A stretch of 64,000 nucleotides of DNA from Ignavibacteriota bacterium (GTDB lineage: Bacteria > Bacteroidota > Ignavibacteria > UBA10030 > UBA6906). Of the stretch, positions 25,572-37,146 are shown piece after piece. Location: contig JACRFA010000113.1 in the NCBI GenBank assembly GCA_016218065.1, positions 6,458 to 70,457 of the forward strand, written 5' to 3'. Numbering within the stretch: position 1 is the first letter of the stretch; each line of letters opens with the position of its first letter. Under the pieces are notes generated by a model. That model did no database searches, was not told the origin of the DNA, and saw only the letters and a list, made by a program, of their open reading frames with translations. The translations under genes and the position numbers were made by a program.

Positions 25572-25727
25572 TATAAACGTCTCGGCAAACAACGCCGCCG
25601 TTTTGCGAACTATTCAACGACAAATTCTCCGTGAGCAAAAACGGTGGAACGAGCACAACTGATCTTTTTATCGAGCTTCAACGTAACCATATCAAATGAG
25701 CGAGTGTCGTTGTTTGCTGTGTTAGCT
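25572..25727 (+). repeat. attC-like imperfect palindrome, copy a
   Basis: TATAAAC-gtctcg-GCAAACAACG ... CGTTGTTTGC-tgt-GTTAGCT. It has an inner stem CCGCCGTTTTGC/GCAAAAACGGTGG and a conserved core GAGCACAACTGA...TGAGCGAGTGTCG shared with copies b-d. Confidence 0.6.
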
Positions 25728-25926
25728 GCAGTGCACGGGCTGGCTCGAGCTCCGTGAAGTACCACCGACCAGGGTGTGGTTAATGCATCTTGACTGTCAT
25801 TGGAATTGAACCGCCTCAACTGCCAGAGAATTATACGGAAAATCGTATCAGCAATCCCGCCTTTTGTATACGTTCTCCCAACGCTGGCGTCTTATATTAG
25901 TACCGTAAACCTTGAAAGGAGGAACA

Positions 25927-26949
25927 ATGCAAAAGCGCAGACTTGGAAATAGCAACATCGAGGTCTCGGCCCTCGGGCTCGGCTGCATGGGAATGAGTTT
26001 TGGCTTGGGCCCTGCTGCTGACACGAAAGAAATGATTTCACTGATTCGTTCTGCCGTCGAAAAAGGAATTACCTTCTTTGATACGGCAGAAGTGTACGGA
26101 CCATTCACCAATGAAGAACTTGTGGGTGAGGCGCTGGCACCATTCAAAGGAAAGATCGCTATTGCAACCAAGTTCGGTTGGAAGCCCAATGCCGACGGGA
26201 GCGGTCGATGGAATGAATTGGATAGTCGTCCTGAACATATCAAAGAAGTAGCGGAGGCATCTCTCAGGCGTTTGAAGGTCGATACGATTGATCTGTTCTA
26301 TCAACACCGTGTTGACCTGAATGTCCCGATCGAAGATGTCGCCGGCGCAGTGAAAGATCTAATCAAAGCAGGCAAGGTAAAACACTTCGGTCTTTCTGAA
26401 GCCGGAGTGAAAACGATTCGGCGCGCACACGCAGTGCAACCTGTGACGGCCGTTCAAAGTGAATACTCGTTGTGGTGGCGGCAACCCGAAGGTGAATTGT
26501 TGCCGACGCTTGAAGAGCTCGGCATTGGTTTTGTTCCGTTCAGTCCTCTTGGTAAAGGTTTTCTCACAGGCACAATCAACGAGAACACAAAGTTTGACAG
26601 CAATGATTTCCGGAATGTTGTTCCACGTTTTGCGCACGATGCACGAAAGGCGAATCAGTCTATGGTCGATTTGCTGAAGAACATCGCGCAAAGGAAGAAG
26701 GCAACACCTGCACAAGTCGCGCTTGCCTGGCTGCTTGCACAAAAGCTCCCGAAGAAAAATGTTTCGGGACAGGCGTGGATCGTTCCGATTCCCGGAACAA
26801 CGAAACTCCATCGCCTGGAAGAAAACATCGGTGCTGTTGCCGTTGAATTTACAACCGATGAACTGAATGAAATTGAAAATGCTTCTTCACAAATCAAAGT
26901 GCAGGGTGAACGCTATCCTGAACATCTCCAGAACCTCGTCAATCGCTAA
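25927..26949 (+). CDS. aldo/keto reductase
   Basis: The N-terminus [24 protein letters not shown] and the motifs FFDTAEVYG and DLFYQHRVD are typical of the AKR family. AGGAGG lies 6 nt upstream of the ATG at 25927; the ORF track TTG is at 25912. Confidence 0.88.
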
Positions 26950-27024
26950 CCTGAACTGAAAATGAACAGAGCGCAACGAGTGGTAAGAAGATATGAACGA
27001 TAATGGCGAAAGAGAGAATTGAAC

Positions 27025-28065
27025 ATGAAAGCAACTGTAATGTACAGCGCCGGGGATGTTCGTGTTGAGAGCGTTCCCGATCCTCGCCTGCTGGAACCAA
27101 CCGATGCGATCGTCCGCATCACCCACGCCTGCATCTGTGGCAGCGATCTCTGGCCATACAAAGAAATGCAATCCAGCGAGCATGGCCGCCAGATGGGTCA
27201 CGAGTTTGTTGGTGTCGTCGACGCTGTCGGCGCTGATGTCCGCACGGTAAAGCGAGGCGACCTTGTCGTTGCGCCGTTTGCCTTCTCGGATGGCACTTGC
27301 GAATTTTGCCACGAGGGAATTCATACGTCGTGTGTGCACGGTGGGTTCTTTGGGGTCGGCATGGAGAATGTCGGAGGCGGACAAGCTGAAGCTGTGCGCG
27401 TGCCGTTGGCTGATGGAACTCTATTCAAGCTGCCGGTCGGGAAGGATGATGCGCTGATGCCGTCGTTGCTCACGCTTACCGACGTGATGGGCACAGGTCA
27501 TCATGCGGCTGTCACCGCAAGGGTCAGGCCCGGCAAGAAAGTGGCCGTCATCGGTGATGGTGCAGTCGGCTTGTGCGGAGTGATTGCTGCCCGGCGTCTT
27601 GGTGCCGAGCAGATCATCATATTGGGTCGTCATCCAGGCCGGATTGCACTGGCAAGGGAGTTCGGCGCAACAGATGTTGTAGGCGAACGCGGCAACGAGG
27701 CAATTGAATGTGTGCGGGAGTTGACGGGCAGTTTTGGCGTTCACTCTGTGCTTGAGTGCGTAGGTACCGACCAGGCCATGCGGACAGCAATTGGCATTGC
27801 CCGCCCTGGCGGCGCCATCGGTCGCGTGGGTGTGCCGCACTACGAGGAGATTCCGAACGCGCAACCGTCGTTTTACGGGAACATAACCGTAAGCGGCGGT
27901 CCTGCACCTGTCCGCTCCTACATCGAAGAACTTCTGCCCGACATTCTTGAAGGCAGGATTGAGCCGGGTCGCGTGTTCGATCTGGTTACGGGGATCGACT
28001 GCGTACCCACAGGCTACCAGGCGATGAACGAGCGCAAGGCGATCAAGGTCATGATCACATTCTGA
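27025..28065 (+). CDS. zinc-dependent alcohol dehydrogenase (MDR family)
   Basis: Catalytic zinc motif CGSDLW...GHEFVG, structural zinc Cys cluster (C..C..C), Rossmann motif VIGDGAVG. Confidence 0.88.
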   Translation: MKATVMYSAGDVRVESVPDPRLLEPTDAIVRITHACICGSDLWPYKEMQSSEHGRQMGHEFVGVVDAVGADVRTVKRGDLVVAPFAFSDGTCEFCHEGIHTSCVHGGFFGVGMENVGGGQAEAVRVPLADGTLFKLPVGKDDALMPSLLTLTDVMGTGHHAAVTARVRPGKKVAVIGDGAVGLCGVIAARRLGAEQIIILGRHPGRIALAREFGATDVVGERGNEAIECVRELTGSFGVHSVLECVGTDQAMRTAIGIARPGGAIGRVGVPHYEEIPNAQPSFYGNITVSGGPAPVRSYIEELLPDILEGRIEPGRVFDLVTGIDCVPTGYQAMNERKAIKVMITF

Positions 28066-28080
28066 GGACTTGTCTGAACA

Positions 28081-35762: not shown

Positions 35763-35920
35763 ATCGTTTGTCCCTTTCTGTCGTTGATGGAGTTTTCAGT
35801 CGCTACTCGTTAGGCTTGTATGAAGCCACCAGTTGGTGATCAGGGGTAGCGACTCGAGCCCCGTGTTTATTCCTGTCGGCTTTTGTTGAAATCTTGTTCA
35901 ACATGACTTTGGGCGTTTTG

Positions 35921-36124
35921 GCTAACGTCTTCGCAAACTACGTCCTCGCTTTTTCATAACCGAGTGAGGCGTGGAGTGAACACAACTACACTGAGCGAGC
36001 GTCGGCCTGCCCGCCATGCTTCACCTTTTGGCGGGCATGTGTGCGAGCCTTACCAAATTCGCTTTCTGAATCCCGATGTTTCTCATCGGGATGTGTGAAC
36101 GCCGATGCTTGCATTTGTAATGTG
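35921..36124 (+). repeat. attC-like imperfect palindrome, copy c (expanded, right arm decayed)
   Basis: GCTAAC-gtcttcgc-AAACTACG ... CGATGCTT-gcattt-GTAATGTG. It is collinear with copy d apart from two inserted hairpins (GCCCGCC/GGCGGGC at 36009-36036; CCCGATG/CATCGGG at 36072-36090). Confidence 0.55.
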
Positions 36125-36170
36125 CAGTTGTTTTTCCGCCGAAACTCGGGTTGGCAAAACCTTATTGCTG

Positions 36171-36947
36171 TCATCGTGATTGGACTGGGTTTGTTTCCAT
36201 TGTACAAAGCCTGACAAACTTGACACCAAGTTCAGTCATGAGAATAGACCTTGGCTCAGACACATTGACATCGACATCGAATTCGCTTCCATCGTAATCG
36301 CGAGTATGCATATGGCTCCTCGACGGAGATACGTCAACTTCCACATCCGGAACATCCCATTTGATGGTGCCGAGAGCTAACAGACTGGAAATGAAAGCAT
36401 TCAGACTCTCTTCCGCGTGACCTGTACTTGTTTGGATGTCAATGATTCGTAAGGAGAATGTGGTGAGCTTAGTTTCGTCGCGTTTCCTTTCTCCTGAATA
36501 CTTCTCATCGTAAGACTGCCGCTTCTTTTCAAGCGCCTTGAATATGGACTCGAGTAGTTGAGCTTCGGCTGCCGTGATAGTTTTCAATATTTCGATGGCA
36601 TTCTGTTCGAGGAGTACTCTACTGTCCGTTGTCACAATATTTGCGATGAGCCGAGCCCATTTGTCTTGAAGATACTCGTCTTCTTCCAATGAACTGTACT
36701 CGATGAGCGGCGCCAATGTTCTAAGTGAGATTCTCTTTGGGTCAAGGTTATGCTTGCTAAGATATACCTGAGCACTAGAAAATATTTTTACTTGGTTCTT
36801 GAATCTCCGAAGCCTGACTTGGTCCGCGATTAAGCCGCTTGTTTCGTCAAGAGAGGGTCCAAAAAGTGCCTTGAGAAGAGCCTCGCTCTTGTCAAGCAGT
36901 TGTTTTGGGATATTGAGGCTATCGATTACTTTACCCAGGCTTTCCAT
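36171..36947 (-). CDS. Abi-alpha / DUF4393-family protein (abortive-infection-associated family)
   Basis: 258 aa. The pattern ...LKALFGPSLDETSGLIADQVRLRRFKN...LAPLIEYSSLEEDEYLQDKWARLIANIV... matches the Abi_alpha family hallmark (acidic stretch followed by LQxxWAxLLAN). Assignment is from memory of the family. Confidence 0.65.
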   Translation of the reverse strand: MESLGKVIDSLNIPKQLLDKSEALLKALFGPSLDETSGLIADQVRLRRFKNQVKIFSSAQVYLSKHNLDPKRISLRTLAPLIEYSSLEEDEYLQDKWARLIANIVTTDSRVLLEQNAIEILKTITAAEAQLLESIFKALEKKRQSYDEKYSGERKRDETKLTTFSLRIIDIQTSTGHAEESLNAFISSLLALGTIKWDVPDVEVDVSPSRSHMHTRDYDGSEFDVDVNVSEPRSILMTELGVKFVRLCTMETNPVQSR

Positions 36948-36994
36948 TTTCGTCTCGGCACCGATTGTCAGAGATTAGATGGCAAAAACAATTG

Positions 36995-37146
36995 CACATA
37001 ACGTCTTCGCAAACTACGCCACGCCGAAATCCTCGCTTTTTACAACTGAGTGAGGCGTGGAGTGAAGACAACTAAAGTGAGCGAGCGTCGGCTTGTGTGC
37101 GAGCTTTACCAAATGTGTGAACGCCGTAGTTTGACGTTGTTATGTG
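36995..37146 (+). repeat. attC-like imperfect palindrome, copy d (best preserved)
   Basis: CACATAAC-gtcttcgc-AAACTACG (36995-37018) ... CGTAGTTT-gacgtt-GTTATGTG (37125-37146). The outer AAC/GTT triplets are intact, and the core GAAGACAACTA...GTGAGCGAGCGTCGGC is shared with copy c. Confidence 0.6.

Follow-up and report, generated by a model that had tools for sequence, protein, structure and literature searches.

The split ABC-transporter operon and its array

The window, by which we mean the whole stretch of DNA analysed here, comprises 64,000 nt of an Ignavibacteriota bacterium (GCA_016218065.1, contig JACRFA010000113.1, positions 6,458-70,457, forward strand). It contains an ABC-transporter operon that is split by a 13-kb array of intergenic palindromes and accessory genes. 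The first gene of this operon, here called gene X (37376-39088, minus strand), codes for a protein with an NMT1-like substrate-binding domain and an OmpA-like C-terminus (Pfam). The array lies directly behind it and parts it from the permease (23182-23985) and ATPase (22385-23179) genes, which occupy 22385-23985 on the minus strand and were assigned by Pfam and by synteny with the related loci L101 and L103. In these relatives X is followed by the permease directly (L101) or by VWA and then the permease (L103). The AT content of the array is higher than that of its flanks.

Within the array four elements, a to d, lie on the plus strand in one orientation and within 11.6 kb. The first-pass annotation had described them as attC-like elements of common architecture, and all four were recovered at the positions it gave. 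Its by-eye impression that copies are restricted to 25.5-37.2 kb was also borne out, since scoring of every position of the 64-kb window revealed no fifth copy; in motif searches the observed counts were reached in 0 of 100 shuffles. The coordinates given here include the full outer boxes and the scores are those of a covariance model (CM) built in this analysis. Element a (25564-25735, +) is a complete attC-like site (model R1, 175 bits, E = 5e-46) with copies of ~95% identity in Ignavibacteria MAGs. The strand as written is the better-folding one and the cassette ORFs are found on the opposite strand. Its parts follow in the order outer box ...GTATAAAC, 4-nt loop, 12-bp stem P1, hairpin H1, interrupted helix P2, 1-nt loop and outer box GTTAGCTGCAGTGCA. 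Element b (31830-31990, +) is complete too (110.8 bits) and belongs to a 'CACAAACCACG' subtype that is also represented by the copies in L009 and L016. Element d (36988-37153, +) is a complete site of a further subtype, c/d (57.5 bits), whose own outer boxes CACATAAC/GTTATGTG pair at 8 of 8 positions.

Element c (35912-36131, +) is decayed. It is found by nhmmer (E = 6e-11) and gives a weak partial match of 10.6 bits with the covariance model. The decay of its right arm, noticed earlier, is evident from CGATGCTT in place of the expected CGTAGTTT. Of the two hairpins regarded as insertions the one at ~36068-36095 is indeed extra, whereas that at ~36004-36040 is a feature of the subtype, shared with L017. 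The reported loss of the GTT triplet from two of the four elements is real (GTC in b, GTA in c). The second core box thought to be shared by all of them is not: the positional counterpart of TGAGCGAGTGTCG (a and b) in c and d is TGTGTGAACGCCG and not TGAGCGAGCGTCG.

Units and attI-like sites

A simple attI-like site (37333-37375, +) adjoins the stop codon of X and reads GGCGTACGT-ACTGTA-G|TTATGATG on the gene strand. It has the layout of the sites that immediately follow the recombinase genes of L008, L012, L021, L024 and L025 and, judged from this layout and position, it appears to be the head of the present array. The attI-like sites and the elements have only the GTTA... box in common. Behind this site lies unit 0 (37139-37347, minus strand), an ORF-less cassette of 209 nt with an imperfect terminal inverted repeat of ~23 bp, comparable to a 205-nt ORF-less cassette present in three copies in L108. 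Unit 1 (36117-37002, minus strand) carries an Abi_alpha gene (ORF 36171-36947; Pfam 1.7e-18) and is bounded by GTAATGTGCAGTTGT and ACAATTGCACATAAC, which complement each other at 13 of 15 positions. Unit 2 (31976-35926, minus strand) has four genes coding for a 144-aa protein, a TctA-like membrane protein, a Ser/Thr kinase (PD-T4-6-like) and an HMG-CoA-reductase-like protein. It was rightly called unusually large, the family median of inter-element units being 756 nt, and between its ends no more than 9 of 15 positions are complementary.

Twice the array is interrupted by remnants of the flanking gene X. The first interruption (30965-31075, minus strand) comprises 21 codons from the very end of X (31011-31075) and a second attI-like site (30965-30994; gene strand GGCGTGGTT-ACGGTA-G|TTAGCTGCAATGCA). 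Between this remnant and element b a truncated unit with glyoxalase-like and RibD_C-like genes is located (31076-31844, minus strand), which has no partner outer box and is homologous to DNA downstream of X in L100 (89-93% nucleotide identity). The second site is followed by an oxidoreductase unit (25721-30979; Pfam) with genes for AraC, an aldo-keto reductase, an NAD-binding protein, ADH and another aldo-keto reductase. Of 15 positions in its two ends, GTTAGCTGCAGTGCA and TGCATTGCAGCTAAC, 14 are complementary. These genes (25912-30887) lie on the plus strand, i.e. inverted relative to the array, and therefore are not co-directional with the other cassettes as had been assumed. Next to it a truncated unit that encodes an EamA transporter (24552-25406) spans 24335-25578 on the minus strand, again with the partner outer box absent. 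What is presumably the oldest remnant of the 3' end of X follows (24080-24334, minus strand), its X part (24180-24334) joining amino acids 449-481 to 552-570. Behind it come an old terminator hairpin (~24120-24149) and a third, empty attI-like site (24080-24116; gene strand CCAATGTTGCTCACATTGG-CGCT-G|TTAGCTGG). Three attI-like sites, each behind X or a remnant of its 3' end and not behind an integrase, anchor the array. A left half-site seen before at 30973-30991 is genuine but not solitary, with two more at 37333-37375 and 24080-24116. The view that the locus has neither intI nor attI holds for the integrase over all 64 kb and has to be given up for attI. Only one tyrosine recombinase is encoded in the window, at 8319-9221; it lies 16 kb away from the array and is an XerD of the ordinary kind (374 bits).

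Fold, family and hybrid-site signature

Searches with nhmmer and the covariance model gave more than 100 copies of this family from Ignavibacteria, Chlorobi and Bacteroidota MAGs; the pattern is present in 18 genome loci and in no viral one. From AAC to GTT the sites measure 75-213 nt (median 137 nt). Covariation supports a three-way-junction fold, with 90.2% of cells paired versus 66.1% in shuffles (95.6% each for P1 and H1) and compensatory changes in 39 of 43 pairs. The AAC and GTT triplets are nearly invariant (77-78 of ~80 cells). The boxes GCCTAAC/GTTAGGC fit the attC consensus RYYYAAC/GTTRRRY exactly, and the commonest pair, GCATAAC/GTTATGY, is one position off. A left spacer longer than the right one, first noticed in the window, proved very regular throughout the family, since 67 of 77 copies show a 4x1 internal loop (AAC-GTYT-stem ... 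stem-T-GTT; 4 nt versus 1 nt). P1, the counterpart of the L stem, runs uninterrupted for 12 bp, and its consensus is free of bulges. The extrahelical bases (G, T) of attC, by which a recombinogenic bottom strand was expected to be recognised, do not occur in the L stem of the family consensus. The hairpin between the 12-bp stem and the interrupted helix is variable, and the interior is a conserved three-way junction with the motifs TKGAGCGA ... GAGYGYCG and tandem G-A mismatches.

The copies are grouped in arrays with a single orientation, which reach a density of at least 13 in 10 kb (L108, on a 1.4-Mb contig); L002 has 12 copies, L109 has 8 and L033 has 7. Among the ORFs inside arrays 48 of 55 run opposite to the better-folding strand of the element, and each element is preceded by an ORF end at a distance of 10-30 nt.

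Between the outer boxes on either side of a unit 9.15 of 12 positions are complementary on average, as compared with 5.48 +/- 0.19 for permuted boxes (observed value reached in 0 of 5000 permutations), while the two boxes of one element are complementary at 5.60 of 12 positions, which is the random level. In the window unit ends match at 14/15, 13/15 and 11/15 positions. Such complementarity across units, as far as it can be read from the boxes, is the signature of integron cassettes, and it indirectly points to a crossover at G|TT that would give rise to hybrid sites as in attC.

The recombinase at array heads

Every captured array head in related genomes starts with a tyrosine recombinase followed by an attI-like site. 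Recombinase and site adjoin with fixed polarity in L008, L012, L018, L020, L023-L025, L033, L035, L106, L108, L109 and others. The attI-like sites are placed directly 3' of the gene, next to the recombinase as attI is next to the integrase. In recombinase-bearing loci the elements are found downstream and antisense (n = 50), never downstream in the same sense (0) or upstream (0).

With 35-36% identity to IntI1, 212-236 bits against the integron integrase model TIGR02249 (more than against XerD and XerC) and VchIntIA (2A3V) as best PDB match in both sequence and fold, this enzyme lies closest to the integron integrases. Its length and domain layout (Phage_int_SAM_4 + Phage_integrase) are Xer-like and its database label is XerD. 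The distance between KGxKDR and LRHSFAT is 60-63 aa in all 80 homologues measured compared with 102 aa in IntI1; the alignment with IntI1 shows a gap, the match with VchIntIA skips residues 180-237 and the I2 insertion is absent from 80 of 80. This IntI-specific additional domain defines IntI for IntegronFinder and in the literature (PMC4889954, PMC9668308). An integrase at array heads without a domain thought essential for integron recombination would represent a new variant of the integron, and no description of such an I2-less variant was found in the literature searched.

A probable integron-like gene-capture system

We consider it likely that elements a to d are attC-like sites of an integron-like gene-capture system of Ignavibacteria, Chlorobi and Bacteroidota. 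The array in the window has no cognate recombinase within the 64 kb. In the proposed mechanism the single-stranded site would fold into a three-way junction in which the box ending with AAC pairs with the box starting with GTT, followed inwards by the fixed 4-nt by 1-nt loop, the 12-bp stem, the variable hairpin and the interrupted helix. A cassette would consist of one or few ORFs and then one attC-like site. If strands are exchanged at the G|TT of whichever box of a site lies 3' on the ORF strand, array sites would be hybrids in which the body and one box come from one cassette and the remaining box from the following cassette. In related genomes the array starts at the attI-like site, in which 6 nt separate a short inverted repeat from GTTA..., directly downstream of the co-oriented tyrosine recombinase. 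This I2-less enzyme is predicted to excise cassettes as circles and to insert them at attI, with the folded site as its substrate. The array in the window was presumably built into the 3' flank of X and may have kept three nested heads, each composed of an X 3' end and an attI-like site, which would carry the ORF-less, the Abi_alpha and the four-gene kinase cassettes, the inverted oxidoreductase block and two truncated units.

Several observations count against this explanation. The 64-kb window contains no recombinase of the I2-less family, two unit boundaries, to the left of a and of b, have no partner box, and the units measure 4.0 and 5.3 kb, much more than the family median, with one of the two in inverted orientation. 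In L100, which has the closest relative of X (96% amino acid identity) with accessory genes behind it, no elements are detectable behind X. As no cassette was found in two different contexts, mobility is deduced from the anatomy of the sites and from one triplicated cassette, the three identical ORF-less copies in L108. The decay of site c and the lost GTT of b and c have to be listed here as well, and they would at the same time fit a sedentary array in which recombination has ceased or become rare. As to the strand that folds, the indication is weak: the plus strand, opposite to the ORFs, is the more stable one in 42 of 49 copies, and the excess of G-T over A-C (114 versus 55) stems mostly from one conserved wobble, with P2 showing the opposite trend. 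The stability and the wobble are indirect hints that a folded single-stranded bottom strand may recombine with double-stranded attI.

It is unlikely that these are ordinary attC sites mobilised by a canonical, I2-bearing IntI elsewhere, with the I2-less recombinase as a bystander Xer-like gene. The AAC...GTT boxes, some of them exact RYYYAAC (GCCTAAC), the cassette architecture and the hybrid sites would all be as in integrons, and Chlorobi and Ignavibacteriae are among the groups with complete integrons according to IntegronFinder (PMC9024848). However, the supposed bystander stands next to the attI-like site at every captured head, an I2-containing integrase occurs in none of ~100 loci, and the extrahelical bases recognised by the I2 helix in canonical attC are missing from the L stem.

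Even less probable are structured RNAs (3'-UTR stabilisers, terminators or antisense small RNAs) with an incidental link to recombination. Strong covariation, the conserved junction, the position 10-30 nt past ORF stops and one conserved G-U wobble would suit them. However, Rfam yielded 0 matches at gathering score in the whole window and nothing relevant in 25400-37500 at E <= 10, and the ORFs run opposite to the strand of higher stability. Such RNAs also leave unaccounted for the boxes that match across units and not within an element, the identical duplicated ORF-less units and the strict linkage to recombinase and attI-like site.

Dispersed repeats of MITE or REP type or Xer/dif-type module boundaries are hardly credible: imperfect palindromes in several intergenic copies recall them, but the four copies in 64 kb are not scattered and lie in one 12-kb block at gene boundaries, elsewhere there are only one-orientation arrays downstream of one family of site-specific recombinases, target-site duplications are absent and 75-213 nt with a conserved junction differ from orientation-alternating 28-bp dif sites, so MITE/REP membership, raised earlier as the outcome to be checked, was rejected.

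Relation to known systems

A CALIN, as Cury and co-workers are said to have put it in 2016, is a cluster of attC sites lacking an integron integrase. The window has this layout because the sites are present without a cognate recombinase: four sites of the same orientation delimit cassettes with no cognate integrase within reach, and the array would classify as CALIN (at least two attC sites, integrase-free) provided that its sites count as attC-like. What sets it apart from a CALIN are the attI-like sites that anchor it, located behind a housekeeping transporter gene, and the nested remnants of this gene inside it. The first-pass idea of an integrase-less cassette array thus stands in its integron logic and recombinase-free layout and fails in the canonical identity of its attC sites. 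In canonical attC sites the single-strand fold is conserved and the sequence hardly so, the terminal structure varies and the length is 57-141 nt. With a continuous L stem, a conserved junction and an I2-less recombinase the present system falls outside canonical attC/IntI.

In length and domain layout the recombinase resembles XerA, XerC and XerD. It differs from Xer by its higher scores against IntI models and the IntI structure, and a separate bona fide XerD is encoded in the window; in contrast with 28-bp dif/pdif its sites are folded elements of 75-213 nt in direct orientation.

The closest known system are the sedentary chromosomal integrons (Treponema and Chlorobium of 'atypical orientation', with attC such as the Vibrio VCRs). 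Common to both are arrays of short, co-oriented and mostly promoterless ORFs, with a folded imperfect palindrome between ...AAC and GTT... behind each of them, the (here putative) G|TT crossover with hybrid sites, a simple attI site beside the integrase, lineage-specific and homogeneous site sequences, ORF-less and duplicated cassettes, and cargo of toxin-antitoxin or defence type. The differences are that the recombinase described here has no IntI-specific additional domain (I2 helix), that the asymmetry of the site resides in a fixed 4x1 loop beside the crossover triplet instead of extrahelical bases in the L stem, that the interior is a conserved three-way junction and not a variable terminal structure, and that the sites are longer (median 137 nt, maximum 213 nt). 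The integrases of Treponema (PMC3607928) and of archaeal integrons (PMC9668308) are transcribed towards attI and the cassettes, and the same polarity is found here.

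Elements and their fold

The four attC-like repeats a, b, c and d (25564-25735, 31830-31990, 35912-36131 and 36988-37153, all on the + strand) were re-inspected in the sequence, and the positions and single shared orientation proposed for them by the first-pass annotation were all borne out. A repeat scan and alignment divide them into two subtypes, a/b and c/d, and the “conserved core” formerly ascribed to all of them needs one correction: TGAGCGAGCGTCG, a box of c and d, does not correspond in position to the box TGAGCGAGTGTCG that a and b possess. Mismatch-tolerant motif searches recover the copies and almost nothing besides, with 0 of 100 shuffles reaching the observed counts. 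The covariance model (CM) built here scores element a with 175, b with 111 and d with 57.5 bits; element c gives a partial CM match only (10.6 bits; nhmmer E = 6e-11) and is a decayed copy. With filters off and every position scored, the model adds no further credible copy in the 64-kb window, where the first-pass annotation had seen none by eye outside 25.5-37.2 kb. A weak CM match outside the array at 43559-43632 (- strand, 14.4 bits, E = 0.03) is probably a mere hairpin or terminator ending the ORF 43557-44534. Rfam yielded no match to the elements at gathering score and none at E <= 10.

Their structure was drawn by hand on a gap-poor alignment of 12 copies, a CM was built and 85 matches were aligned. 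This procedure replaced RNAalifold on raw MAFFT alignments, which gave the inner stem only because hairpin H1 was misaligned. The fold comprises an outer helix P0 formed by ...AAC and GTT..., a helix P1 and the hairpin H1 of 12 bp each, and an interrupted helix P2 containing a tandem G-A mismatch (C-GA-G opposite C-GA-G) as its internal loop. In the alignment of 85 matches, which was fitted to the structure and is biased in its favour, standard pairs occupy 90.2% of cells versus 66.1% in column shuffles and 30-50% with the partners slid; both-sided changes occur in 39 of 43 pairs, and P1 and H1 are each 95.6% paired with all their pairs covarying. Given this effect size and the visible swaps between subtypes (GGCAAACAACG/CGTTGTTTGCC, CACAAACCACG/CGTGGTTTGTG, CAGGCATTACG/CGTAGTGCCTG), the fold is secure despite the fitting. 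The previously noticed asymmetry of the spacers turned out to be a fixed internal loop, in which AAC-GTYT faces T-GTT in 67 of 77 copies. AAC and GTT lie a median of 137 nt apart.

The more stable strand is the one opposite the ORFs in 42 (RNA parameters) or 41 (DNA parameters) of 49 copies, and by analogy with integrons we infer that this strand would be the recombinogenic bottom strand. Wobble counts were tried as another means to fix the folded strand and discarded: the signal is real (114 G-T versus 55 A-C in the stems), but one position dominates, since a single G-T conserved at the foot of H1 supplies most of the excess, and in P2 the trend is reversed. At this H1 position (columns 44/225 of alignment A7) 55 G-U and 16 A-U are found. 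The conserved H1 wobble and the tandem G-A of P2 are candidate recognition features that could take the place of the extrahelical bases of canonical attC sites.

Arrays in related genomes and the cassette signature

A degenerate pattern reaching from the inner box to the first of the conserved motifs was searched in viral contigs and species-representative genomes. No viral contig carries it. It is present in 18 loci of species-representative genomes, all of them MAGs, with the labels Ignavibacteria, Chlorobiaceae and Bacteroidota/Bacteroidetes besides one Saccharibacteria and one “bacterium”, and the copies therein closely resemble elements a and b. TypA of the window shares 89-93% identity with proteins from MAGs of Bacteroidetes/Bacteroidota, which puts the host within this broad group as well. 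Profile and CM searches reveal that the related loci (numbered with the prefix L) contain arrays, always in a single orientation, with 12 copies in L002, 7 in L033 and 6 in L011; the 1.4-Mb contig L108 has at least 13 within 10 kb. The ORFs of the arrays run opposite to the written element strand in 48 of 55 cases, and an element starts 10-30 nt past the ORF stop codon. Units, i.e., the cassette-like stretches between neighbouring elements, have a median length of 756 nt (range 205-5259 nt). Those of the window rank among the largest family units measured, in line with the first description of its four-gene cassette as unusually large.

In an integron array the crossover takes place inside the site, which means that the outer boxes of one site derive from different cassettes and that the boxes flanking one cassette pair with each other. 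This signature was analyzed in 103 elements from 34 loci (59 adjacent pairs) over 12 positions beyond the triplet, counting Watson-Crick pairs. Boxes across one unit are complementary at 9.15 of 12 positions; random re-pairing of boxes gives 5.48 +/- 0.19, with 0 of 5000 permutations reaching 9.15, and the two boxes of one element stay at the random level (5.60 of 12). The window repeats the family pattern: the unit from element a to 30979 has ends matching at 14 of 15 positions (GTTAGCTGCAGTGCA / TGCATTGCAGCTAAC), the Abi unit at 13 of 15 and the ORF-less unit beside the substrate-binding/OmpA-like gene X at 11 of 15, and the two boxes of element a itself match at about 4 of 15.

At ~12.4-14.4 kb of L108 one array contains three identical ORF-less units of 205 nt with terminal inverted repeats of ~20 bp. 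This triplicate is a duplicated cassette and thus a sign of recent activity. When 60 units were compared all against all by BLAST, none was common to different loci, and therefore the pairing of a site body with its ORF is taken from the attI comparison only.

Recombinase family and attI-like site

The first reading of the window, a cassette array with attC-like boundaries and no visible integrase, was right in kind. A recombinase of the array-heading family is absent from the 64 kb, and the only tyrosine recombinase, at 8319-9221, is a normal XerD according to the profile scan. The 18 loci were searched by tblastn with IntI1, and matches adjoining elements were obtained in 3 of them. These three recombinases are 35-36% identical to IntI1 and, in the alignment with it, do not have the ~30-40-residue insertion containing the ALERKYP...W motif. 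The integron-integrase model TIGR02249 matches with 212-236 bits, above the XerD and XerC models, under its own cut-off and in two pieces. By sequence the best solved structure is 2A3V, the integron integrase of Vibrio (154 bits, in two pieces skipping residues 180-237), followed by XerA (130) and XerD (102), and the best fold match of an AlphaFold model (pLDDT 81) is likewise 2A3V. In databases these proteins are named XerD, “tyrosine-type recombinase/integrase” or “site-specific tyrosine recombinase/integron integrase”.

A metagenome scan with the three proteins as queries yielded 80 loci. The presence of I2, the helix specific to integron integrases (IntI), was scored by the distance between KGxKDR and LRHSFAT in place of the ambiguous BLAST gap placement. 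This spacing amounts to 60-63 residues in 80 of 80 recombinases having both motifs, compared with 102 in IntI1. In recombinase-bearing loci 50 elements lie downstream in antisense, none downstream in the same sense and none upstream. Directly past the recombinase stop codon a simple site is found, in which a 6-nt spacer (ACAAAT or NNNGTA) separates a short inverted repeat from GTTAKGYGC. It has only the GTTA... box in common with the elements, which places the crossover at G|TT on the 3' side of the site (ORF strand). An IntI-like family without I2 heads long arrays that bear the molecular scars of cassette exchange.

Among the recombinase contigs (L020-L099) 34 of 83 end less than 600 nt past the catalytic motif, as would be expected of assemblies broken by repeats. 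It appears that short-read assembly is systematically interrupted where an array begins, and the arrays are probably under-represented in MAGs. Recombinases only ~50% identical to the core family precede their own repeat families of 100-230 nt with the same ...AAC / GTTAGC ends in L057 (10.4-19.4 kb) and L042 (6.9-14.6 kb). The system seems to exist as several lineages, each with its own site type.

Relation to integrons

The arrays resemble integrons in architecture, polarity, hybrid-site scar and the crossover at G|TT on the 3' side of the ORF strand. Moreover, the recombinase is transcribed towards attI, as is the integrase of the Treponema-type integron (PMC3607928). They differ in two defining features, namely the recombinase that has no IntI-specific domain and the L stem of the element that has no extrahelical bases. 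On both of these a classification as canonical attC sites fails, and the elements are better placed as a variant within the integron principle.

The I2 helix is the extra domain that defines integron integrases and binds the flipped-out bases of attC (PMC7790495, PMC9668308). It has been described as needed for recombination (PMC9668308) and is regarded as the innovation by which a Xer-like enzyme came to recombine single strands (PMC7790495). In complete genomes Cury et al. encountered tyrosine recombinases without intI_Cterm near attC, which lay beside fewer than three sites and were not regarded as IntI (PMC4889954). In the literature searched (subscription journals lie outside its coverage) no account was found of I2-less integrases heading arrays or of cassette arrays in Ignavibacteria.

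With a probability that we put a little short of even, the elements belong to a large undescribed integron branch of Bacteroidota, Ignavibacteria and Chlorobi, whose integrase never had or has lost I2 and would shuffle cassettes via folded sites, the 4x1 loop and the three-way junction instead of extrahelical bases guiding the choice of strand and partner. If true, this would be a living “proto-integron” or an independent route to structure-specific recombination, and it would contradict the need for the additional domain in integron-type recombination. Should the enzyme act on these sites, the origin of integrons would become open to experiment and a second set of rules for structure-specific DNA recombination would be at hand. 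Current tools probably miss the cassette arrays of a major environmental phylum or call them integrase-less. The main interest attaches to the recombinase family pointed to and not to the four copies of the window themselves.

Organization of the array in the window

According to Pfam and NCBIfam scans the order on the minus strand is PspA, gene X, element d, Abi_alpha, element c, the four-gene operon and element b, followed by glyoxalase-like and RibD_C-like genes, a + strand block of AraC and four oxidoreductase genes, element a, EamA and the ABC permease and ATPase. Of the co-directional genes originally assumed before each element, the oxidoreductase block has to be excepted, because it is on the + strand, opposite to the other cassettes. 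In the product of gene X (37376-39088, -) an NMT1-like substrate-binding domain is joined to an OmpA-like C-terminus; the permease (23182-23985, -) and the ATPase (22385-23179, -) belong to the same ABC operon. In L101 (X 82% identical) the permease directly follows X and in L103 a VWA gene lies between them; consequently, the 13 kb separating X and permease in the window are an insertion. It is AT-richer than its flanks. The array accounts for a 13-kb accessory block that carries genes for abortive infection and a kinase and divides a transporter operon.

The window has three attI-like sites, each immediately following a 3' end of X. The first (37333-37375; gene strand GGCGTACGT-ACTGTA-GTTATGATG) follows the intact gene ending at 37376 (-), the second (30965-30994; GGCGTGGTT-ACGGTA-GTTAGCTGC) a 21-codon remnant at 31011-31075 and the third (24080-24116; CCAATGTTGCTCACATTGG-CGCT-GTTAGCTGG) a rearranged remnant at 24180-24334, in which amino acids 449-481 are joined directly to 552-570. 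Hence, the region reads as three nested array heads. Head 1, with intact X, would comprise the ORF-less, Abi and four-gene cassettes, associated with d, c and b, respectively, plus the truncated unit of the glyoxalase and RibD_C genes. Head 2, with a remnant of X, would have the inverted oxidoreductase unit, associated with a, and the truncated unit of EamA. Head 3, a remnant with an old terminator, would be empty and run into the permease. For the two truncated units no partner box is found anywhere in the window. The window's array is a sedentary one in partial decay.

One possible origin of this stacking is that DNA from relatives repeatedly took the place of the array head, with X serving as homology arm. 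The repeated 3' ends of X had first suggested tandem islands inserted by a classical integrase at a gene 3' end or tRNA; this was rejected since there is no integrase, an attI-like site follows each remnant and the intervening units have cassette ends. A reading in which the 3' end of X forms the inside of a complete palindromic site (with CGTGGTC at ~31068 as L' partner) is unconvincing, as the GTT box to be expected is missing.

The closest relative, L100 (X 96% identical), has DNA downstream of X that is unlike that of the window, with a toxin-antitoxin pair and genes for GYD, RibD_C and a glyoxalase, the last 89% identical to its counterpart in the window; no elements were detectable in it by profile and CM search. 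Its Phd/YefM-like antitoxin and RelE/ParE-like toxin ORFs (1800-2260) lie inverted directly behind X and occupy the place of the window's first attI-like site. Another small X-like 3'-end remnant is present in its accessory region at ~2880-2940.

The four-gene cassette (31996-35762, -) codes for a 144-aa protein without a Pfam match, a TctA-like membrane protein, a Ser/Thr kinase and an HMG-CoA-reductase-like protein. Over its full length the kinase matches the profile of the PD-T4-6 defence kinase in PADLOC (5.5e-57), and the cassette may be an undescribed multi-gene defence module around a PD-T4-6-type kinase. On the other side of X the region 39113-43457 (-) encodes an AAA ATPase, a ~200-aa protein and PspA, and the order from these genes to X, permease and ATPase is conserved in L101 and L103. 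The array interrupts this otherwise syntenic block, the AAA protein of which shows weak IetA-like PADLOC matches (3e-9).
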